Positions 4,364 to 22,385 of a DNA stretch of 64,000 nt are shown here, piece after piece (the stretch's first letter is position 1; each line of letters starts with the position of its first letter). Below the pieces are notes generated by a model. That model was not told where the DNA came from. It did not search any database and saw nothing but the letters and a program-made list of their open reading frames with translations. The position numbers and the translations under genes are program-made. This DNA comes from a virus (taxonomy: Duplodnaviria > Caudoviricetes), in IMG/VR virus record IMGVR_UViG_3300044852_000015, positions 1-64,000 of that record; one strand, 5' to 3'.

Positions 4364-4466
4364 GGCTAAATTCTCTTGAAGGGCGGAACACGAGCCGGGT
4401 AATAGTATGGTGCGTATTCTTTTACAGGCAACTATAACATTCGCTGTTTTAACAGGAGTCAACGGT

Positions 4467-6746
4467 ATGGCGCAAACCTATACTTACCCTTTTGACCCTA
4501 CCGGTTCGGCGACATCGAACGCTGTTGCTAACGAGCGACACGTCCTGTCTCCACCGGCATGGAAGGACTTTTACTTCATTGTCCCTAAGCAAGCCCCTTA
4601 CTTCCGGGACTCGTTGCGCGTTATCCATCGTCCATCGGGTAAGCTCCTCGTCGAAGGTGTCGATTACCACTGCACGCACTATTTCCACGCAGCTTCACAT
4701 GGCGTGGCACGGCGAGTGTATGGTTCGATCACGATGCTCGACAAGACGCTCACTGGTGTCCTCGAGATCAGCTACCAGACCATTGGTGGCGATTGGATTC
4801 TGGATGCGTCGGCTGACCTCACCCGTCTGACCAATACGCAAACGAACCCTCGAATCACTACGTGGGAAGAAGTGGTTGATGTCCCATACCAGTTCCCCCC
4901 GATTGACCACGAATGGAACCTTGAAGACCTGAAAGGCGTTGAAGCCATCCTTCCGATTCTGGATGAGATGACTGCGGCCATTCGTGAGTCGGCAGGTTCC
5001 TCGTTTGCAACTCACATTGCGGACAAGAACAACCCTCACTCAGTCACCAAAGACCAAGTGGGACTCGACCAAGTTCAGAACTTCCCGTTGGCGAACATTG
5101 CAGAAGCCCAAGCTGGCTCCCTCAACACTCGCTACATGACGCCTGTTCGCACCAAGAACTTCGTTGACTCCTACATGGTTCCGTTGCTGGACAACCACAA
5201 AGCTGACCTGAATAACCCTCACGGGGTTACGAAGACACAAGTGGGTCTGAGTGCGGTTCAGAACTACGGGGTTGCTACCCAAGCAGAAGCAGAAGCTGGT
5301 ACGGCAACCAACAAGTACATGACGCCGTTGCAGACCAAACAAGCCATTGCTGCATTGGCGACTACTGGTCTGACTGCTCACTTGGCAGACGTGAACAATC
5401 CGCACGCTACAACCAAAGCTCAAGTGGGCTTGGGTAGTGTGGAGAACTTACCTGTCGCGAGCATTGCTGAAGCACAAGCGGCTTCTCGTAATGACCGTTA
5501 CATGACGCCACTGATGACAGCTACGCAGATCCAGGTCTTGGTAAAAGACTCGATGGATTTGCACATCAACGCTACCAACAACCCACACTTGACTACTAAA
5601 ACTCAGGTTGGTTTGTCGAACGTGTTGAACTACGCTCTGGCTACTCAAGCCGAAGCTGAAGCTGGTCTGATCACCACGGCGTACATGACTCCGTTGATGA
5701 CCCGTAAAGCGATCGAAGCGATTGCGACGGGTTCGATTGGTGCTCACTTGGCTGACAACAACAACCCTCACGCCGTTACTAAGGCGCAGGTTGGTTTGGG
5801 TTCGGTACAGAACTACTCGATCGCCAGTACCGTCGAAGCTCAGTTGGGTACGTCTACGATTCGCTATATGACCCCAGCCACCACGGCTGCGGCTATTGCG
5901 GCGTTGGCCGGTGATGAACTGGAGGCCCACGTAGCCAACACCCTGAACCCACACAACGTCACCGCTGCTCAGGTGAACGCCTACGACAAAACGCAAACCG
6001 ATACTCTGCTCGACTTCAAGTTGGGTAAGACTGATAATGCGGCCAACGCGTTGAAGCTGGAAGGTCGCAGTTACCAAGACGTACTGGATGCTGCGAAAGC
6101 TCAGACGTCTGCCAACTCGCTGAAGCTTGAGGGTAAGTCCTTAGCAGAAGTGATTGCTTCGGTGACTACGGGTGACGTGGCTAACTCCCTCCATTTGGAA
6201 GGTAAGTCGTATCAGGAAGTTCACGACCAGATCATCGCGGACATTCCGTACGCTGTTCAGTTTGAAGTTCCCCAGTACGAAGACGTATTGGTGGGTACTA
6301 CTAACTGGACTCCGGTGTTGATCGCCACTCCCGACTTCAGTACAACTGACTTCGATAACGTATCGGTGTTGATCAACGCCAGTACCGAAGTGGCTGACCT
6401 GAGTACGGTGACGTTGGTTCGGGTTAACATGACGACCCTGTCGGCCTCGGCTGTAGTGTTGTCGGGTGACCCTGCGAACATCCAACTGCGCTTTGCAATT
6501 GTGGCCGGTACTCTGCGGATCTGGAAACACATCGACGCTGACATGACAGTGGTTACAGTGACTGTTCTGGGTGGCACGAAGTTCGTCAAGTTCGAAGATG
6601 GTGCTCCGATCTCTACTGTGGTGCCTGCGGGTACCTCGGTGATTCCAACGATCGGCTACAGCAACTCGGCTGACGTGGAAACGTTGATCGCCAACATGAA
6701 GACGTCGTTCGACACCCTCACGACTGCACTTACCGCCCTGGGCTAA
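4467..6746 (+). CDS. Tail fibre protein with six HxxxxxNPH...QVGL...YMTP repeats
   Basis: Start moved to MAQTY (RBS AGGAG). N-terminal YPFDPTG..N...NE.H module, six ~60-aa NPH repeats, three AN.L.LEG.S repeats and a beta-rich C-terminal domain. Confidence 0.8.
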   Translation: MAQTYTYPFDPTGSATSNAVANERHVLSPPAWKDFYFIVPKQAPYFRDSLRVIHRPSGKLLVEGVDYHCTHYFHAASHGVARRVYGSITMLDKTLTGVLEISYQTIGGDWILDASADLTRLTNTQTNPRITTWEEVVDVPYQFPPIDHEWNLEDLKGVEAILPILDEMTAAIRESAGSSFATHIADKNNPHSVTKDQVGLDQVQNFPLANIAEAQAGSLNTRYMTPVRTKNFVDSYMVPLLDNHKADLNNPHGVTKTQVGLSAVQNYGVATQAEAEAGTATNKYMTPLQTKQAIAALATTGLTAHLADVNNPHATTKAQVGLGSVENLPVASIAEAQAASRNDRYMTPLMTATQIQVLVKDSMDLHINATNNPHLTTKTQVGLSNVLNYALATQAEAEAGLITTAYMTPLMTRKAIEAIATGSIGAHLADNNNPHAVTKAQVGLGSVQNYSIASTVEAQLGTSTIRYMTPATTAAAIAALAGDELEAHVANTLNPHNVTAAQVNAYDKTQTDTLLDFKLGKTDNAANALKLEGRSYQDVLDAAKAQTSANSLKLEGKSLAEVIASVTTGDVANSLHLEGKSYQEVHDQIIADIPYAVQFEVPQYEDVLVGTTNWTPVLIATPDFSTTDFDNVSVLINASTEVADLSTVTLVRVNMTTLSASAVVLSGDPANIQLRFAIVAGTLRIWKHIDADMTVVTVTVLGGTKFVKFEDGAPISTVVPAGTSVIPTIGYSNSADVETLIANMKTSFDTLTTALTALG

Positions 6747-11883: not shown

Positions 11884-12411
11884 ATGAGTTCAGTTACACA
11901 CAACGTGTTGCCTATTAATACTTTCCCGCAGTTGTCTCGGGAGTCGTTACAGGTAGACCGCATCCTCGCAAGCACTTACGCTTACGAACAAAACCTTGTA
12001 GTGGCGATTGGTACTCCAGACGGGTCTCAGATTCTCCACAGTCCTCAGCAGTACGCTCAAGACTTCAGTTTCTGTAGCACCAAGATCGAACGCATGGAGC
12101 ACCTGTCACTGACCATCGCTAACATCTGTTACTCCATCCGCGCCAGTCAACACCACGTTGGGCCAATCACCGCCCACTTATTCATAGCCCCAGAGACGGG
12201 CCTTAGTTTTAAAGAACACACCGATCCTGATGACGTGTTGTTATATATGGTCGAAGGTCGTAAGTTGTTCGTAGTCGCCGGTCGAGAGATCTGGTTGGAA
12301 ACTGGGGAGTCTCTATTTATTCCTGCCAACACATTGCACCAAGCATTCGTTGACGGTTACTCACTGATGCTCAGCATTGGTTTGGAATCGTGGATCGAGG
12401 AGAAGCTATGA
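11884..12411 (+). CDS. JmjC/cupin 2OG-Fe(II) oxygenase (ROX/YcfD-like core)
   Basis: SFKEHTD (HxD), VEGRK, LETGESLFIPANTLHQA (distal His) and LSIG give the typical JmjC facial-triad layout. Confidence 0.75.
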   Translation: MSSVTHNVLPINTFPQLSRESLQVDRILASTYAYEQNLVVAIGTPDGSQILHSPQQYAQDFSFCSTKIERMEHLSLTIANICYSIRASQHHVGPITAHLFIAPETGLSFKEHTDPDDVLLYMVEGRKLFVVAGREIWLETGESLFIPANTLHQAFVDGYSLMLSIGLESWIEEKL

Positions 12412-13445
12412 CGCCACCCAAAATTATCTACGTCAAGACTACGGGGACTTGTAACCTTGATTGCCAACATTGTTTTACCGGTGGGAAAAATGGTGACCGT
12501 ACGCAATTCGACCCTGATGTCGCTGCGGCGTGGATCAAAGAGTTTATCGCCAAGTATCCACCCGACACCCACACTCATCTCGAGTTGCACGGTGGGGAAC
12601 CTTTTATGGTCCCACTACCGAAGCTCCAACAGTTCACGCACCACTTCCAAGGTTTTGAGAACGTCAGCATCTGTGCGAATTCGAACCTGACCTTCCGCAT
12701 CACTCCTGCGATCTTGGACTTCATTAAAGTCGACCTAGACTCGCAGATTGGTACCAGTTGGGATCACTGGATTCGCTGGCCTACTCCCGAGAAGTACGAG
12801 CTGTGGCGTAGCAACTTGGAACTGCTCAGAGCCGAAGGTGTTCACATCGGTCTCAAGGTTTCCGTGAGTCGTCAGTTGATCGACAGTTCACCGCGTTGGT
12901 TCTTGGATCAGATGGATGCTCTAGCGGTGGACACCATCGCTTTGGAACGCATTACGGCTGGGGGGAGTTCGGTAATTAATATGAATGTCTTCCCAGACAA
13001 CGAAGCTCAAGACAACTGGTATTTGGAGTTGTTGAAGCTATACCAACAAGGGAACCACCGCTGCAAGATCAGTACGTTAGACACCCTCCTAGACAAGATC
13101 CGTTTAGGGATGGTGAAAGTCGATACCAACTGTCGCAACTGCGAACAGCATTTGGTGACGATGAACTCAGACGGCACACTCGGTGGCTGTCCTAACGTAG
13201 CCTCTGAACGCAACTACGCCAATGTTCACCAACCTGTAGACGAGTTTCTGTACTCGGAAGATCGCCTCACGGAGATTACTAAAGAGTTGGACTTTGGGGA
13301 TTGTGTTCACTGTGACGTATTTGATCTTTGTGGGGGTGACTGTCATCAATTAGCTTGGCAAGGGAAACGTTGTGGGGGACTGAAGAACACCCTGCGGTAT
13401 ATCTCTGGCCGAGACACTCAATCCAATTTAATACTGAAGGTGTAG
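12408..13445 (+). CDS. Radical SAM/SPASM-domain protein 1
   Basis: CNLDCQHC (CX3CX2C), HGGEP, and a SPASM-type C...GxLGGC...CVHCDVFDLCGGDC...C segment. Start moved to ATG 12408 (ATGA overlap). Confidence 0.9.
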   Translation: MTPPKIIYVKTTGTCNLDCQHCFTGGKNGDRTQFDPDVAAAWIKEFIAKYPPDTHTHLELHGGEPFMVPLPKLQQFTHHFQGFENVSICANSNLTFRITPAILDFIKVDLDSQIGTSWDHWIRWPTPEKYELWRSNLELLRAEGVHIGLKVSVSRQLIDSSPRWFLDQMDALAVDTIALERITAGGSSVINMNVFPDNEAQDNWYLELLKLYQQGNHRCKISTLDTLLDKIRLGMVKVDTNCRNCEQHLVTMNSDGTLGGCPNVASERNYANVHQPVDEFLYSEDRLTEITKELDFGDCVHCDVFDLCGGDCHQLAWQGKRCGGLKNTLRYISGRDTQSNLILKV

Positions 13446-13448
13446 GGT

Positions 13449-13961
13449 ATGGGTAACGCAAGTACGGCTGATGTGATTAACTCATTCAACGCCATTATCA
13501 AAGCCAACGGTAACTCTGGTATTTCGTGGGGGAACAATAACTACCCCTACTCAGCAGACACCGCCGGGTTCTTTTGGGGACCTAACTGGGGTATCGCCGC
13601 GCAACCTGATCCAGCGTCTCTGGGGTCTGGCTATCAAGCCAGTGCTTCGGTGATTCGTAACACCCTGATGTCTTATGCTCGCAACTATGCGTACATTCGG
13701 ATGGTTCAGGTATTGGTCTATCGTTCTGGCGATAACGCACTGTTGTATAACGGTACGGCCTTGGGTTACTCCAGAGACCCTGTGTACATTCCCGATGCAG
13801 TAGCGGGTGCTACCGACCGTGGTTATCCGATCTCCTTGGGTGAAGTCAACAACTACCTGTGGCGGATCTGGCAGAACTACGCTGCTGCTCGTGCGGCAAC
13901 AATCCAATACGTTGCTTGGGTTTGCCACTCCAACTGCCACATTAACCGCTCCCGTCGCTAA
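13449..13961 (+). CDS. Gly/Asn/Tyr/Trp-rich protein with C-terminal CHSNCHINRSRR; candidate substrate of the cluster
   Basis: 170-aa ORF 3 nt after rSAM 1. Its only two Cys and two His lie in the terminal motif. The function is inferred. Confidence 0.7.
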   Translation: MGNASTADVINSFNAIIKANGNSGISWGNNNYPYSADTAGFFWGPNWGIAAQPDPASLGSGYQASASVIRNTLMSYARNYAYIRMVQVLVYRSGDNALLYNGTALGYSRDPVYIPDAVAGATDRGYPISLGEVNNYLWRIWQNYAAARAATIQYVAWVCHSNCHINRSRR

Positions 13962-15764: not shown

Positions 15765-16772
15765 ATGACACAACTGATTCCGTTAAAGAACATCCTGACT
15801 CAGAAACGCGGTCCGGGTAAAGAAGTTCTGTTGATTCTGTTTGAGCGTTGTAATCTAACGTGTTCGTTTTGTCATCAGGACCACCAGTCTACCCTCGGGA
15901 TGGAAGACATCTATCGCAAAGCTGACGACTTGATTGCCAGCTACGACGGTAGCTCTGACTGGGTGGTGAACCTGACCGGTGGTGAGTTGTTCATGGACGA
16001 ACACCCTGACCACGTGTTTGGTCAGTACCTGATGTTGGTGCGTCGAATCAAAGCCGCTGTACCGACTGCGAAGTTCTGCTTCATCACCAACTTTGTGTTC
16101 ACCCGTGTGGCTTGGGTAGAGCGACTGTTGCGGATGTTGCGCTATGACAAAATTGAAGTAACCCTCGGGACTTCTTACGATCCTTGTGGTCGTTTTAACG
16201 CCGAGAACAAAGAGACGTTCTTCCGTAACTTGCAATACTTTAAGGAAGACGTCCAAACCATTTCCATGGTGCTGACCCGACAGAACATCAACTGGTTCTT
16301 GAAAGGTTCCACTGACGAGGTGTTTGACTACATCTACGACACTCACGGGATCTACTTTGACCAGTACACTCCGGGAGACGGCTACCGTCAGCATCAACCG
16401 ACTGATCGTGAACTTGCTGACCTGTACATCGAGATCAATCGACGCTATCCCAAGGTCGAACCTCTGCGCAGTTGGCGTGAGCAGTCCGTTAACGTGTCTA
16501 CCTGCCGTTCTACGGTTGTAGTGACACCAACGTCGCAAGTAACGACTTGTAGGTCGCTGGTGGGCTCTAACGCAGTCCTAGACGAAGCGCAGGGGGAGTT
16601 GATCAAACTCAAAGCTGAGGAGACTTTCCTCGAGCGTTACAACTGTTTGGAATGTGAGCACTACCAACGTTGTGGCTTGCGCTGTTTCCTCCACAGTGAA
16701 TTCCTCGAACCTTCACAGGACGAGTGTCACTTCAAAAGAATGTTCGACCAAATCCTGACCAAAGGTGCGTAA
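15765..16772 (+). CDS. Radical SAM protein 2 with C-terminal Cys cluster
   Basis: CNLTCSFC, TGGEL, and C-terminal CLECEHYQRCGLRC...C. Confidence 0.88.
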   Translation: MTQLIPLKNILTQKRGPGKEVLLILFERCNLTCSFCHQDHQSTLGMEDIYRKADDLIASYDGSSDWVVNLTGGELFMDEHPDHVFGQYLMLVRRIKAAVPTAKFCFITNFVFTRVAWVERLLRMLRYDKIEVTLGTSYDPCGRFNAENKETFFRNLQYFKEDVQTISMVLTRQNINWFLKGSTDEVFDYIYDTHGIYFDQYTPGDGYRQHQPTDRELADLYIEINRRYPKVEPLRSWREQSVNVSTCRSTVVVTPTSQVTTCRSLVGSNAVLDEAQGELIKLKAEETFLERYNCLECEHYQRCGLRCFLHSEFLEPSQDECHFKRMFDQILTKGA

Positions 16773-17860
16773 TGGATCTCATCGTTAAACCCACGCTGGC
16801 TTGCAACTACAAGTGTACGTTCTGCTCCAGCACCACCAATCCTGAGGGTGCTAAAGTCGTACTCGATCTGGACATGGTGAGACGGTTTATCGTTCGCTAC
16901 CCAGAGACTCAGGTGATCATCATTAATGGTGGCGATCCCCTGATGGTGGAACCACAGTACTACTGGGACCTGATTGCGATACTGGATGACCTCAAGTCTC
17001 CGGCTAAGCTGTCGTTCACCAGTAACCTGTGGGCCTATTACAAGAAGCCTTCGATGTGGGTGGAGTTGTTTAACCATCCACGAGTTGGTGTAGGGACTTC
17101 GTTTCAATACGGCGATGCTCGGTTGAAGGGCGACTTGAAGCCTTTCACTGAGGACGAGTTCTGGGCGATCTCTGACATGTTCCTCCGGGACGTTGGGGAA
17201 CGCTTGGACTTCATTGCGGTGATTGACCAGTCAAACGCAGACACCGTTATTCGGACCGTAGAGTTAGCTCGTGACATGAACGTCGTGGCGAAGATCAACC
17301 CTGCGTTCAGTTCAGGTGAGCAAGTGGTGTCTCGGGGTATCACCATGGGGAATGCGGGTTCCGCTTTTCTGCTGGCTGACATCTACGCCAAGTACGTAGA
17401 GATCCATGAAGCAGGACTAACTGAATGGGAATACAACACCACTCAGTTGACTCACCGTTTAAGAGACGGTCGGACTTCGTGTCCACAGAACCGAGAGTGT
17501 GACTCAGGTATCCGTAACTTGGAACCGAATGGTCAGTACAACTCCTGTGGTAGTTTCGGGGATGACAAACTCTATTTGATTGACTTTGAGTCAGAGATGG
17601 CTGGTGGTTTCAGTCGTCCACTTCAAGTCCCTGAGTTACTGTCCATGAAAGACAGTTGCTTCAGTTGTCCGATGTTTGCTATCTGCAACGGTTGCCGTAA
17701 AACCATCCACGATCACAAGTCGTTAGGGATGGTGGAGTCACACTGTCGCAAGATGAAAACCCTCGCCCCCAAGATCATTGCAATGAATGGCTTGACTGGT
17801 GTGTTGGAACCTACTCCGTACGTCGATGAGTCTGTCTCGGACCTAATCTTTAAAGGATGA
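16772..17860 (+). CDS. Radical SAM/SPASM-domain protein 3
   Basis: CNYKCTFC, NGGDP, and CPQNREC...SC...CFSCPMFAICNGC...C. Start at the TAATG overlap (16772). Confidence 0.9.
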   Translation: MDLIVKPTLACNYKCTFCSSTTNPEGAKVVLDLDMVRRFIVRYPETQVIIINGGDPLMVEPQYYWDLIAILDDLKSPAKLSFTSNLWAYYKKPSMWVELFNHPRVGVGTSFQYGDARLKGDLKPFTEDEFWAISDMFLRDVGERLDFIAVIDQSNADTVIRTVELARDMNVVAKINPAFSSGEQVVSRGITMGNAGSAFLLADIYAKYVEIHEAGLTEWEYNTTQLTHRLRDGRTSCPQNRECDSGIRNLEPNGQYNSCGSFGDDKLYLIDFESEMAGGFSRPLQVPELLSMKDSCFSCPMFAICNGCRKTIHDHKSLGMVESHCRKMKTLAPKIIAMNGLTGVLEPTPYVDESVSDLIFKG

Positions 17861-17863
17861 GCT

Positions 17864-18961
17864 ATGAACAGTTACACGAACTTCAATCCAAACACAGCGT
17901 TCGATTTGATCTTGGAAATCACGCAAGGGTGTAAGCACAGTTGCACCGGGTGTTTGGTAGACACCAATGGAAGTTTGTGGCCTTCTGAAGACGACTTCGG
18001 AAAGCTCCGTGGTTTGGTGACTGACATGGTGGCCAACGGAATGCGTCCTAGTGTGTTGACGCTAGGGCCTACCGACATCCTGTCTGCGGGTAATCTGGTA
18101 GAGTGTTTCACCGACCCGCACATCAAAGCCATGGCTGACTCTTTTGAAGAGTTGGAGATAGGTTGTACGTTCCTCTCCACTGGGGAGCAGGGTTATCGTC
18201 ACTTGGCACAATTGGTGGATCACCTGATGCCGGGTAAGACGGTGAACTTCAACGTTCCGTTCGAGATCAACCACCTCGGGAATGAGAAATACATTCAAGG
18301 GATCAAGAAACGCATTGCACAGTTTGCGGGTTACTTGCAATCTGCTCGGTTGGGTGAAGTCCAGTGTCAAGCCCAGTTCGATGTCGGTGCCTCTGACGTC
18401 CCACAAGACCTCATAGAGCTGTTTGCCGCCGCTAAGCTGACACACATCCACGATGAACAAGCCGCTGTGTTTACGTTACCTCACGGGCGTCGTGACCTTA
18501 ATGAGTTAATGAACCGCAGCAACTTCATTCGCTCAGCGCAGATCCTCGCCGACTACCAGATCGGTACGGTGGGTGTCCCCGAGGATGAAGACCGCCAGAT
18601 CATGGAGTTGATGTACCGTAATGGGAAACTCTATTACCGTCCTTTCCTCGTGACTGAGATCGTGGTACTGGACCGTGCCTTTGAAGTCCGTGGTCCGTGG
18701 TTGTTCAATCAGATGGTGGCGTTCAAACAAGCTCGGATGATCGGTGGCTTTGAAGACGCCATGAAACACCCTCTCTGTAACAGTTGCCCTCAGATGGGTC
18801 AGTGTGGTGAACGCGGTATTCATCAGTTACAGAAACTTATTAACTTCGACGGTTGCTTAACCGCTCTGCGCAAGGTATCGGAAAATGTCCCTAGTACAGG
18901 ATCACGCTCGGCACTTCGACCTACAGCTCGACTTAACCATCGGGTGTCGGAATCGCTGTAA
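17864..18961 (+). CDS. Atypical radical SAM-like protein 4
   Basis: CKHSCTGC, with GPTD in place of the GGE motif, and C-terminal CNSCPQMGQC...C. Confidence 0.75.
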   Translation: MNSYTNFNPNTAFDLILEITQGCKHSCTGCLVDTNGSLWPSEDDFGKLRGLVTDMVANGMRPSVLTLGPTDILSAGNLVECFTDPHIKAMADSFEELEIGCTFLSTGEQGYRHLAQLVDHLMPGKTVNFNVPFEINHLGNEKYIQGIKKRIAQFAGYLQSARLGEVQCQAQFDVGASDVPQDLIELFAAAKLTHIHDEQAAVFTLPHGRRDLNELMNRSNFIRSAQILADYQIGTVGVPEDEDRQIMELMYRNGKLYYRPFLVTEIVVLDRAFEVRGPWLFNQMVAFKQARMIGGFEDAMKHPLCNSCPQMGQCGERGIHQLQKLINFDGCLTALRKVSENVPSTGSRSALRPTARLNHRVSESL

Positions 18962-19961
18962 CGGTTGTAAGGTTGATCTGGACGGTACTCAGTATCCTCC
19001 GATGGATGACTGGGTTAAATTCAAGAAACTGGTGGTGTCAGTAGAGGCCGCAGGAATGCACCCGTATGACCTGATCTTAGGTCCCACAGACATCCTCACT
19101 TCGGCTAACCGTGAAGAAGTGATGAATGACTTCCGCATGGTGGATCTGCTCCAACACTTTAAGTTCCTGTCGATCACTTGTGGGTTCTTGAGTACGGACT
19201 TACAGGAGTACGAGTGGTTGGCACGGCAACTGAATGTCATTATGCCGGGCAAAGGGTTGACGCTCACCATTCCTATTAAAGTGGGGTACCTGAACAACCC
19301 GAAGTACACCCAAGGTATCCGTGACCGTCTGAAGTATTTCACTGACCAGTTGATTGACATTACCTTAAACGAGGTGGTGACTACGGTGGTGTACGACGAG
19401 CAAGAGGTCTACAAGATCTCCACTCAGGAACACGTTAACCTCGACATGATCACTCAGTCCCTCGGGGTTCACTTCGGTCGTAAGAAAGACATCGACTTTG
19501 TGATCCACCACGGTCGTGAAGGTTTTGCTAACTTGCTCAATCGTGATCGGTTCTTACGCTCTGCTCGCAGTCTGGCGCTGGTCACTCGTGACGCCAAAGA
19601 GAGCCTGCCGGAATACGGCATAAAAGAAACCAACGACATGGTTCCTCATGAAGGTCGTGACACTACGGTGATCTACAACAATGGGCGCCTGTACCACCGT
19701 CCGTTCTTGATGGAACACTTACCTTACTTCGATCCAATCTTTGAAGTTAAAGGTGAGTGGGTAGCGAACACCCTGATCGAAGAGCGTAGTGAGCAATTGG
19801 TAGAAGGCCTCACGTTCGCTGTAGAGCACCCTCTGTGTAAAGGTTGCCCTGCCATGACTCTGTGTGCTGATCGTGGCGTACACGCGATTATGAAGCACCT
19901 CGGAGCCCAAGAGTGCATCACTGACCTAAACCAAAGCTTGGAGGGTATCTCGTGGACGTAA
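18885..19961 (+). CDS. Atypical radical SAM-like protein 5 (paralogue of protein 4)
   Basis: CRNRCNGC, LGPTDIL, and C-terminal CKGCPAMTLC...C. Confidence 0.75.
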   Translation: MSLVQDHARHFDLQLDLTIGCRNRCNGCKVDLDGTQYPPMDDWVKFKKLVVSVEAAGMHPYDLILGPTDILTSANREEVMNDFRMVDLLQHFKFLSITCGFLSTDLQEYEWLARQLNVIMPGKGLTLTIPIKVGYLNNPKYTQGIRDRLKYFTDQLIDITLNEVVTTVVYDEQEVYKISTQEHVNLDMITQSLGVHFGRKKDIDFVIHHGREGFANLLNRDRFLRSARSLALVTRDAKESLPEYGIKETNDMVPHEGRDTTVIYNNGRLYHRPFLMEHLPYFDPIFEVKGEWVANTLIEERSEQLVEGLTFAVEHPLCKGCPAMTLCADRGVHAIMKHLGAQECITDLNQSLEGISWT

Positions 19962-20446
19962 TTCAGCCGTGGACTATCGCCATCGGTCGCTTTGATCTCG
20001 GGACTTCGTGTACTGAGACTTCCTTTTATGGTGAGTTGGAACATTCCCGCATTAGACCCAGGGTGTGGGAGTACGTGGAAAAGGTGTTCGACAAACACGA
20101 CTCCAGTTGGTTGGTGAATCGCAATACCGTCCTGCGCAAGTTGTCACCTAACCAAATGAAAGACCCGGAGGTCAGTCGGGGTGGGTTCTTGACTTCGTTG
20201 TTGTGTCTTGTGGAGTCCGATGCTGAGATTGTACTGATGGACCCTCGGTCGTTTATCCAACGGGGAATTCCACCAGAGATCCAAGCGCTCACCACGGGTA
20301 ACCATGTGATCCGTCCCAAGCTGGGTGAGTTGTATGTGTTTCCGTCCTACGTCACGGTTTACGTGAGACCCGGTAAGTTGGGTCGGACTGACCTGATCTG
20401 TGATTACGATTACGACAAACCCCGCACCGAACGGGATAACCTCTAA
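19952..20446 (+). CDS. Degenerate 2OG-Fe(II) oxygenase-like protein, apparently lacking the metal ligands
   Basis: Aligns with the next ORF (IQPW, MDPR, P..G.LY.FPSY) but has no HxH and no distal His. Confidence 0.6.
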   Translation: MDVIQPWTIAIGRFDLGTSCTETSFYGELEHSRIRPRVWEYVEKVFDKHDSSWLVNRNTVLRKLSPNQMKDPEVSRGGFLTSLLCLVESDAEIVLMDPRSFIQRGIPPEIQALTTGNHVIRPKLGELYVFPSYVTVYVRPGKLGRTDLICDYDYDKPRTERDNL

Positions 20447-20455
20447 GGGGTACGT

Positions 20456-21013
20456 ATGGAACTGATACAACCGTGGCAAACCACCATCCTGAAACATAAC
20501 GTGTCGGATGAAGTAGACTTGGAACAACTGGTGACTGAACTGATCACCACCAGTAATTTAACCGAGACTGCACACAAAGCTCGCACTACCGCAGAACGTA
20601 ACCCGTATGCAACGGCGGTGCGAGACACGGTGGTAACTCCGAAAGCACAAGCGTACATCGAGCAGGTGTACGGGCTGGTGACAGAACACAAACTGTACTC
20701 CACCGGTTCTTTCGGTAAGCTGGTAACAGACGGCTCAGGAATGGACCCACACGCTCACCCTACGACGTTCCTGTCCGCAGTGTTGTACTTGGACGACTCC
20801 GATGCCACGATGGCTATAATGGACCCTAGACGTTGTCAACAACGAGCCCTGCCTCGTGAGATCCATGCGTTCGATAACGACTTCTACAACATCCTCCCAC
20901 GTGCTGGCGACTTGTACCTGTTCCCCAGTTACCTGCTCCACCTAGTACGTGCTTCCAAACCCGGCTTCCGGTTGTCCTTCGTGACGGACTACCGCTTCGA
21001 ATCAGAGTACTGA
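20456..21013 (+). CDS. 2OG-Fe(II) oxygenase (TIGR02466-like)
   Basis: HAHP..LSAVLYL...PRAGDLYLFPSYLLHLV...RLSF provides the HxH...H triad plus the Arg. Confidence 0.75.
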   Translation: MELIQPWQTTILKHNVSDEVDLEQLVTELITTSNLTETAHKARTTAERNPYATAVRDTVVTPKAQAYIEQVYGLVTEHKLYSTGSFGKLVTDGSGMDPHAHPTTFLSAVLYLDDSDATMAIMDPRRCQQRALPREIHAFDNDFYNILPRAGDLYLFPSYLLHLVRASKPGFRLSFVTDYRFESEY

Positions 21014-21014
21014 C

Positions 21015-22385
21015 ATGCAAACCAAACCACCGATCATCCTCAGTCTGAATCCAACATATTACTGTAACTTCAGTTGTTCCTTCTGTTACTTGACCCCAGC
21101 ACAACTGAATGACCGCAAACTGTTGGACCTGAACAAACTGGAAACCCGACTGGATGAGATCTTGGAACACTACTCGATTGAGTGGGTGGACATCTACGGT
21201 GGTGAGGTTCTGCTGTTACCTGACGTTTACCTCTCAGCACTCGTGGCGTTACTGAAGACTAAACAAGTGGGCGGGATAGGTTTGAACACCAACCTCTCAC
21301 TGATCAAGGACATCGTCTTCGATCCAGCGGTACACGTGTCGGTGAGTTACGATTTCGAGGCGAGGGAGAAACACGAGTTAGTGTTCGCTAATATGGCGAA
21401 GCTGACCAACCCATTCTCGGTGCTGTTGTTGGGGAGTCCTGCGTTACTCAAGAAGCCTGCTGGTGAAATCATCACGGCGCTTAACACGTTCCCCAACTTG
21501 GTAACTGTAGAAGTCAAACCCTACAGTCCGAACAGTGCCAACGACTTACCCGTCACCTATAACCAGTTCGAGAACTTCGTTAAGGACTTGATTATCTGTG
21601 ACGTTCCAAAGCGGTTTAGTCTGACCAATGAAACGCTGATCCAAGAAGCCTTGACGGGTCTGCGCAATGCCTACTCGGATAACCATTTGTACATCACCCC
21701 TCGTGGTCGATACGCCGTGTTGGAGTTTGACTCTCAGGATCGTGAGTACTTCTTGGAGTACACTGACCTGACGAAATACTTCGAGTGGTGTGCTCAAGAG
21801 AAAGCCAAAGTAGCGGTCAACTCGTACTGTGGGTCATGTGAGTTTAAAGGACGGTGCCTGTCCGAACACTTGCGTGACGTCACGACTTTAGAGACAGGTT
21901 GCAACGGTGGCTATCACTTGCTCAAATGGGCAGAAGACCGTCAGCGTCCTAAAGAATGGAAGATCTACCAACAGGTTTACAATCGGTTGGTGTCTGAACA
22001 CTCCGATGACTTCGCCAAGGTGGAGTACATCGAAGCTGAAGAACTGGTGGAGAACGCGCTACACTATTTCCGTGAGGCTACGTTCCCACTGATCTACCCG
22101 GCCAAGTCTTACGCAGCGGCCATCGTCTACGCCACCTTAATAGAGCAAACCTACGGGTATCCTTTGAGAGAGTCGTTAAACGATGACGACTTGTTCCTAG
22201 GTCAAGACGCTTACTTCGTGCCTTACCGTAAGAACCCAGACGCCTACGAGGCCATCCTCAAACGTTTGGAAACCTTCCCAGATTGGCTGACCTCAGGGTG
22301 GGCTCCTCGCACGGCAGAGTACTTCCGTCTGGAGTGTACCGAGGACGGGATCAACGAAGTCAACGCTAACCTGATTAGTCAATAA
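21015..22385 (+). CDS. Radical SAM protein 6 with a fused ~150-aa C-terminal domain
   Basis: CNFSCSFC, YGGEV and CGSCEFKGRC...C, followed by an extra helical region (YPAKSYAAAIVYA...). Confidence 0.85.
   Translation: MQTKPPIILSLNPTYYCNFSCSFCYLTPAQLNDRKLLDLNKLETRLDEILEHYSIEWVDIYGGEVLLLPDVYLSALVALLKTKQVGGIGLNTNLSLIKDIVFDPAVHVSVSYDFEAREKHELVFANMAKLTNPFSVLLLGSPALLKKPAGEIITALNTFPNLVTVEVKPYSPNSANDLPVTYNQFENFVKDLIICDVPKRFSLTNETLIQEALTGLRNAYSDNHLYITPRGRYAVLEFDSQDREYFLEYTDLTKYFEWCAQEKAKVAVNSYCGSCEFKGRCLSEHLRDVTTLETGCNGGYHLLKWAEDRQRPKEWKIYQQVYNRLVSEHSDDFAKVEYIEAEELVENALHYFREATFPLIYPAKSYAAAIVYATLIEQTYGYPLRESLNDDDLFLGQDAYFVPYRKNPDAYEAILKRLETFPDWLTSGWAPRTAEYFRLECTEDGINEVNANLISQ

Follow-up and report, generated by a model that had tools for sequence, protein, structure and literature searches.

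A candidate radical SAM substrate with a C-terminal Cys-His repeat tail in a jumbo phage

The gene at 13449-13961 and its neighbors

The window, by which we mean the whole 64,000-nt stretch that we analyzed, covers the opening 64 kb of a virus genome of 238,014 bp in which the gene at 13449-13961 is present as a single copy. This gene, our candidate substrate, sits inside a cassette of radical SAM (rSAM), cupin and oxygenase-like genes (Table 1). Its ATG lies 3 nt past the stop codon of rSAM1, with a purine-rich run upstream, and its own stop codon is 10 nt upstream of the next gene. The initial annotation described a G/N/A/Y/W-rich protein placed right after the first rSAM/SPASM gene, and the open reading frame, the 3-nt gap and the composition all agree with that description: these five residues make up 8.8, 10.6, 14.1, 8.2 and 3.5% of the 170 residues, or 45% combined.

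The protein ends in CHSN-CHIN-RSRR, directly followed by the stop codon. Its only Cys and His residues are at 159, 160, 163 and 164, with the first of these codons at base 13923, and the initial annotation was therefore right to place all of them in the last 12 residues, ahead of RSRR. By chance alone, all four would lie within the final 12 of the 170 residues with a probability of 1.5e-5, a post hoc figure; a chance origin of the tail is excluded because it is conserved in about 175 homologues. In the AlphaFold2 model the alpha/beta body is confidently predicted, and the tail has a pLDDT of 61 with a short helix at 161-164. Pfam, NCBIfam and PHROG profile searches gave no match for the 170-aa protein. 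Among contigs from other runs, none bridges the tail in the window, and the sole spanning contig may come from the source sample.

Table 1. Features of the cassette in the window.
Feature	Position	Strand	Remarks
Fiber-like virion protein, 541 aa	10162..11787	+	phrog_2163; WxxVWP end; possible docking partner
Cupin/JmjC-like protein	11884..12411	+	in 88/89 RxRR phage loci with adequate flanks
rSAM1, radical SAM/SPASM	12408..13445	+	CxxxCxxC spans residues 15-22; SPASM Cys motifs complete
Candidate substrate, 170 aa	13449..13961	+	alpha/beta globular body (~1-158) and C-terminal tail; open reading frame, AlphaFold2 mean pLDDT 91.7
Two Cys-His-x-Asn repeats	13923..13946	+	family norm: three Cys-His-x-Ser
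Terminal R-x-R-R	13947..13958	+	found in most family members
p237, conserved partner, 237 aa	13972..14685	+	directly downstream of substrate in almost all loci
p351, conserved accessory protein, 351 aa	14695..15750	+	no family match
rSAM2, SPASM-type	15765..16772	+	tracks RxRR end
rSAM3	16769..17860	+	core enzyme, also in RxRR-less loci; distant cultured phages share ~60% identity
Two divergent CxxxCxxC proteins	17864-18961, 18885-19961	+	variable in family
Two 2OG-Fe(II) oxygenase-like genes	19952-20446, 20456-21013	+	no Pfam match (first); PF13759 (second)
rSAM6 fused to C-terminal part	21015..22385	+	tracks RxRR end

The rSAM1 protein belongs to the rSAM/SPASM superfamily (TIGR04085, 29.9 against a cut-off of 27), and its CxxxCxxC motif starts at residue 15, too early to leave space for an N-terminal RRE. 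The cassette has no evident protease or transporter gene, and searches with p237 (PDB sequence, Foldseek, VIA, Atlas) found no clear match. The rSAM6 gene of the window has moved to the end of the cassette and is fused to a domain of ~150 aa, which most relatives encode separately. Judged by rSAM1, the closest cultured relative is Pseudomonas phage pPa_SNUABM_DT01 (59%), which shares this gene order, and the affinity to DT01 suggests that our phage is phiKZ-like. The WxxVWP end of the upstream fiber-like protein is kept in all phiKZ-like loci and is duplicated in DT01. We also noted that this protein has a paralogous fiber-like protein at 4407-6746, and that both have His-containing repeats (H..xxNPH).

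The tail family and its linkage to the cassette

Homologues were collected by a full HMMER search; a word-indexed protein search returned the query alone. The HMMER search gave 52 proteins, nearly all of them ending in three Cys-His-x-x units and R-x-R-R, and this near-invariant tail stands against a body that has diverged to 24-44% identity with the 170-aa protein. The usual family end, (CHxS)3-RxRR, is found in 157 of 177 distinct tails, in agreement with the expectation that a C-terminal Cys-His motif followed by RxRR would be conserved. Only Cys, His and Arg are invariant in the tail. In 552 repeat units, which are phylogenetically non-independent, the residue at i+2 after His is Ser 426 times, Asn 88, Ala 25, Asp 9, Gln 3, Val 1 and Gly 0, and the residue at i+1 is Gly 105 times. 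The tandem C-H-x-N repeat described initially is thus correct for the window, and the family form has Ser in place of Asn. Since the position is mostly Ser, hydroxylation of Asn, which had also been proposed, is unlikely as a conserved reaction. Most homologues have His and/or Cys in the body, so that a body free of both is not a family trait.

A clean two-repeat tail occurs in only two of the 177 distinct tails, those of the window protein and of protein P0003. The latter comes from another sample, is 44% identical to the window protein, and has the same gene order, different codons and the two-repeat end. Because this independent protein shares it, the two-repeat form is a real lineage variant and an assembly slip is unlikely. 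Across the homologues the number of repeats runs from 2 to 8 or more. The longest tails that we noted (L058:7986-8684, L155 and P0029) have at least eight Cys-His repeats, separated by short Val/Pro spacers, and keep the RxRR end. The sole stop-terminated homologue lacking a tail is a 107-aa protein (P0053, L137:344-667) whose contig is 735 bp long and which may reflect truncation or an assembly error.

Some homologues have inserts of 100-370 aa. In the 533-aa protein P0054, which is in the canonical position between cupin and rSAM genes, a beta-rich, Gly/Thr-rich insert of ~370 aa separates body and tail. By eye the insert looks adhesin-like, and family searches did not confirm a gp38/PA14-like reading of it. 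P0054, P0017, P0028 and P0041 match phrog_35144 (186 positions, unannotated function) via their C-terminal part. The phrog_35144 proteins, Atu_ph07 gp170, DT01 PA10_00065 and the syntenic RSL2 gp068 share gene position and tail with the window protein, which differs from phrog_35144 in having two repeats and is too divergent to match it directly.

The linkage between tail gene and cassette was observed from both directions, in locus sets that overlap in part. Viral loci fetched with the substrate alignment have rSAM genes in 80 of 80 cases, and those fetched with rSAM1 have the tail gene one to two genes downstream in 46 of 50; in the remaining four, the contigs end within ~550 bp of the rSAM gene, and a cut-off body is visible in two. 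Homologues are therefore essentially never found apart from the cassette, as had been anticipated. A motif that was not conserved, or homologues that had no rSAM neighbors, would have spoken against the initial annotation; because the motif is conserved and the linkage to rSAM genes is kept, neither of these sequence-level objections stands. In phages the gene order hardly varies (cupin-rSAM1-substrate-p237-p351-rSAM2-rSAM3); it recurs in DT01, RSL2, Atu_ph07 and Phosso, with rSAM1 immediately upstream of the substrate in nearly all phage loci and the order from cupin to p237 common to phiKZ-like and T4-like phages. Just upstream there is usually a fiber-like gene, with the WxxVWP end in phiKZ-like phages and an unrelated domain in T4-like phages.

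When the tail was searched for as a DNA pattern in 185,579 species genomes, it was found on 32 stretches, many of them from Bdellovibrionota and one on a 1.29-Mb contig; an alignment search of species-genome contigs gave nothing that tblastn confirmed. Many of the bacterial stretches found by the pattern encode a homologous body and the same enzymes in a rearranged order, and the loci of predatory bacteria mostly have no fiber gene directly upstream. Our literature search, with subscription journals outside its coverage, found no paper describing the substrate family. The tail family with its fixed rSAM cassette thus appears to be undescribed in the literature found, where published genome papers merely note rSAM genes.

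Enzyme content, the RxRR end and known systems

Among phage loci with an RxRR end and adequate flanks, the cupin is nearly universal (Table 1), rSAM2 is present in 72/72 and rSAM6 in 68/72. All 11 loci that lack RxRR retain rSAM1. The six of these with enough downstream sequence have p237, p351 and rSAM3, and none of them has rSAM2 (0/6) or rSAM6 (0/6). Whole-contig searches of five RxRR-less records, which are fragments of 12-41% completeness, found no rSAM2 (the positive control worked) and only motif-level cross-matches to rSAM6. L170 is uninformative on rSAM2 because its contig is 4.8 kb. On the rSAM1 tree, the RxRR-less lineages GSI/L and GDxPG stand apart from each other, and each has rSAM1 and rSAM3 without rSAM2 or rSAM6. 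This tree implies three or more changes of the RxRR state, in lineages of which two out of three are informative. The cupin is absent or replaced in most RxRR-less loci, with one exception. A strict link between cupin and RxRR was rejected, as L172 has the cupin without RxRR and L048 has RxRR without the cupin.

The pattern is suggestive of two modules, in which the core enzymes would act on the Cys-His repeats and an add-on module on RxRR. The window retains both enzyme modules even though its repeats number only two. Because the full enzyme set is kept, its protein would be the simplest native substrate for the chemistry. The presence of several clustered rSAM genes in jumbo phages has struck earlier authors as highly unusual and lacks an explanation (PMC12390700). 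For these clusters, our analysis names a specific candidate substrate, a putative target of 12-16 residues and a possible division of labor between two modules.

We noted two kinds of RxRR-less loci with further differences in gene content. L170:289-2955 is a minimal locus of an Fe-S biogenesis gene (PF01521), rSAM1, substrate and p237, followed by genes on the opposite strand, and its substrate has a hydrophobic end that is not RxRR. Others have, after rSAM3, a gene for a B12-binding radical SAM protein of 630 aa and one resembling Asp/Asn beta-hydroxylases (L083:12065-14645), and a similar-looking gene of 575-613 aa is found in the Bdellovibrionota loci L139 and L161.

The window rSAMs score at about a tenth of the cut-off of the NCBIfam maturase models for every characterized family, and none exceeds 40 bits. 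By analogy, the system appears to work most like the HXS antiphage system (HxsA/B/C/D; TIGR03976-03979), in which rSAM enzymes modify HxS repeats in a folded protein and a +8 Da shift was reported on SHRSS (PMC13128918). In both, rSAMs are encoded together with a folded protein that bears basic residues and His-x-Ser repeats in tandem; the family consensus has these repeats, and the window has His-x-Asn. In HXS, at least two co-encoded rSAM enzymes and a small helper mature the repeats, and the window cassette has 4-6 rSAMs and oxygenases. Unlike in HXS, an invariant Cys opens each repeat, and the repeats of the window family are C-terminal with RxRR. The HXS product is a periplasmic defense effector, whereas the window family, going by its homologue, is a phage virion protein. 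HxsC scores were 19-24 bits against a cut-off of 267.9, no HxsB/HxsC pair above the cut-off was found, and the HxsA model matched none of 46 family members.

SPASM enzymes are known to form links from an aromatic residue to the C-beta of Ser, Asn, Ala or Asp, including links from His (PMC11002830). As in the triceptides (HaaB, YhhB, XncB, OscB, MscB; PMC11002830), the tail has an aromatic-x-X motif in which X is Ser, Asn, Ala or Asp and never Gly, next to SPASM enzymes. Unlike the triceptides, it belongs to a folded protein of 170 aa instead of a short leader-core precursor and has an invariant Cys before each His. The 3-CyFE maturase models were not reached (YhhB 38/445, AmcB 34/425, FxsB 29/370, GrrM/OscB 22/310).

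Cys at every fourth residue, a C-terminal Cys-rich core and an adjacent SPASM enzyme recall the ranthipeptides and sactipeptides (PapB, SCIFF/CteB), and the tail presumably resembles the SCIFF core. Unlike in ranthipeptides, rSAM1 has no N-terminal RRE, there is an invariant His and a large folded body, and at i+4 there is the next Cys and no acidic acceptor. PapB is the top match of rSAM1, a weak one (39.7 against a cut-off of 340), and no ranthipeptide maturase above its cut-off was found; as a candidate stand-alone RRE, the p237 model gave no clear match. Like anSME (TIGR03942), which acts on Cys in a full-size protein, the window enzymes have a minimal rSAM and SPASM architecture without an RRE. 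Unlike anSME, they are several paralogues instead of one and have no sulfatase nearby; they score 35-38 against a cut-off of 349, and the tail has no C/S-x-P-x-R motif. Judged from sequence, the window system is outside the HXS, triceptide, ranthipeptide and anSME families. A heme-c reading of the tail as CxxxCH was rejected, as the N-terminus is by eye not signal-peptide-like and no maturation genes were seen.

If the tail is modified, the most probable chemistry would be a link with -2 Da per repeat, in one of two equally tentative forms. A link from the His ring to the C-beta of the i+2 residue fits the exclusion of Gly at i+2 and the known SPASM chemistry, and a Cys thioether fits the invariant Cys. 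Other chemistry is somewhat less likely than these two forms taken together.

Virion location and interpretation

An HMM of the body alone, with the tail removed, finds Atu_ph07 gp170 (E 4e-8), which was detected in the purified-virion proteome with 8 peptides and 35% coverage; the neighboring cassette enzymes (gp164-169, gp171 and gp172) are all absent from the virion list (PMC6102473 Table S5). The initial suggestion that the body is a virion protein is borne out to this extent, the virion evidence coming from one distant homologue of 296 aa. In the published data (PMC6102473), gp170 (31.9 kDa) has its peak in gel slice 1; the rest of the well-supported proteins there measure 76-139 kDa. Among the 34 virion proteins of 25-40 kDa with at least 3 peptides, it is the sole one with its peak in this slice. 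Because no reductant is listed for the gel loading buffer, this peak indicates a stable oligomer or adduct and does not reveal its chemistry; disulfides or an SDS-resistant oligomer account for it equally well.

In PDB sequence, Foldseek, VIA and Atlas searches the substrate had no clear match, a solved receptor-binding domain included (best Z 4.8), which is no proof of a new fold. Among predicted viral structures (BFVD), family members including Atu_ph07 gp170 match the body model. Three larger proteins of Myoviridae sp. ctijX18 (A0A8S5USJ7, A0A8S5USJ8 and A0A8S5USV2, 500-660 aa) match it in part, with a TM score by query of 0.41-0.57.

In two homologues at the canonical position, the repeats are followed directly by a fused S74 chaperone (P0017: PF13884, E 1e-9). 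S74 has been described as a self-cleaving trimerization chaperone of surface spikes and fibers (PMC10769870). At both fusions (L136:10001-10873, which is P0017, and L101:8001-8948) the upstream cupin is replaced by a prolyl-hydroxylase-like 2OG gene (PF13640). Taking gp170 in virions, the S74 fusions and the inserts together, we infer that the window protein is a surface-exposed, fiber-associated virion component. The initial proposal that it forms a tip attached to the 541-aa fiber is possible but unsupported, the upstream fiber being unrelated in T4-like relatives and no fiber being directly upstream in most predatory-bacterium loci.

Our best explanation, in which we have moderate confidence, is that the gene encodes a small folded fiber-associated virion protein and that the co-encoded cassette modifies the protein's exposed tail. 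In the infected cytoplasm, rSAM1 and rSAM3, with the 237- and 351-aa proteins, would act on the Cys-His-x-Ser/Asn repeats, and rSAM2, rSAM6 and probably the cupin and oxygenases would read the RxRR end or act on it. Once matured, the protein would enter the particle near the fibers and the enzymes would stay behind, giving a rigid, stable, possibly inter-chain-linked appendage element. In the window phage, the modification would be on two repeats instead of three. If this explanation is true, radical SAM protein maturation would extend from peptides and enzymes to virus particles, and phage appendages would be tied to an unexplained cassette in predatory Bdellovibrionota. Against it, the cassette is also found in chromosomes of predatory bacteria, where no virion exists. 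In addition, co-occurrence with rSAM genes cannot tell a substrate from a cofactor or a tag.

The tail might instead be an unmodified metal or Fe-S site that oligomerizes the protein or carries a cofactor, with the enzymes building or loading that cofactor or acting elsewhere. The spacing of Cys (i, i+4, i+8) and His (i+1, i+5, i+9), the restriction of invariance to Cys, His and Arg, and the short helix in the model would all suit such a site. One minimal locus has the PF01521 Fe-S biogenesis gene replacing the cupin, and an unreduced gel would show oligomers held by disulfides or metal. We nevertheless consider it unlikely, since it leaves unexplained the 4-6 rSAMs and oxygenases, the strict Ser/Asn at i+2 and the joint loss of rSAM2/rSAM6 and RxRR, and since 2 to 8 or more repeats suit iterative modification better than one defined site.

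Something of a long shot is a phage and predator rSAM assembly line that would cross-link the Cys-His tails of neighboring subunits to each other or to the fiber. Cross-linking of this kind would account for the position of the 32-kDa gp170 at the top of an SDS gel after boiling. Our literature search, again with subscription journals outside its coverage, found no report of virion structural proteins being matured or cross-linked by radical SAM enzymes.

The tail could also be a recognition or docking tag, bound by enzymes that modify the body or the neighboring fiber. As rSAM1 lacks an N-terminal RRE, another docking device is needed, the terminal RxRR resembles a binding tag, and a fiber gene is directly upstream in phiKZ-like and T4-like loci. 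We regard this as quite improbable given that invariant reactive residues are nearly absent from the body (the invariant positions are G48, W27, G28 and P33) and that the upstream fibers are unrelated between lineages and non-adjacent in most bacterial loci.

Release of the modified 12-16-mer as a free peptide from a large leader, as in a conventional RiPP, would fit the C-terminal repeat core, the SPASM enzymes, the oxygenases and the best weak family matches (PapB, DynA, YhhB), but it is very improbable: there is no evident protease or transporter, the S74 fusions would be cut behind the repeats and not before them, and the body, which the initial annotation's RiPP core would make a leader, is predicted to be a stable folded domain whose homologue is retained in the virion.

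Phage DNA hypermodification pathways are known, and a paper on them is said to mention radical SAM enzymes, but a role of the cassette in DNA base modification or small-molecule synthesis, with the tail gene merely traveling along, is hardly credible when the cupin-rSAM1-substrate-p237 order is fixed in phiKZ-like and T4-like phages, the linkage persists in bacteria in rearranged form, the cassette adjoins fiber genes, and the enzyme content co-varies with the tail sequence.

Several bacterial loci have features of their own. In five loci from Bdellovibrionota and Rhodobacteraceae bins (L139, L145, L147, L154 and L168) there are two tandem tail-bearing genes per cassette. A protein with a poly-Ser C-terminal stretch lies beside five to six rSAM genes in a Bacilli MAG (L158:342-1049). 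In two loci of predatory bacteria the cassette adjoins genes with a pilin-like N-terminus (L153:5670-7325 and L142:6610-7614), and one of these has an S74-like SDxRxK motif, which is fiber-like.
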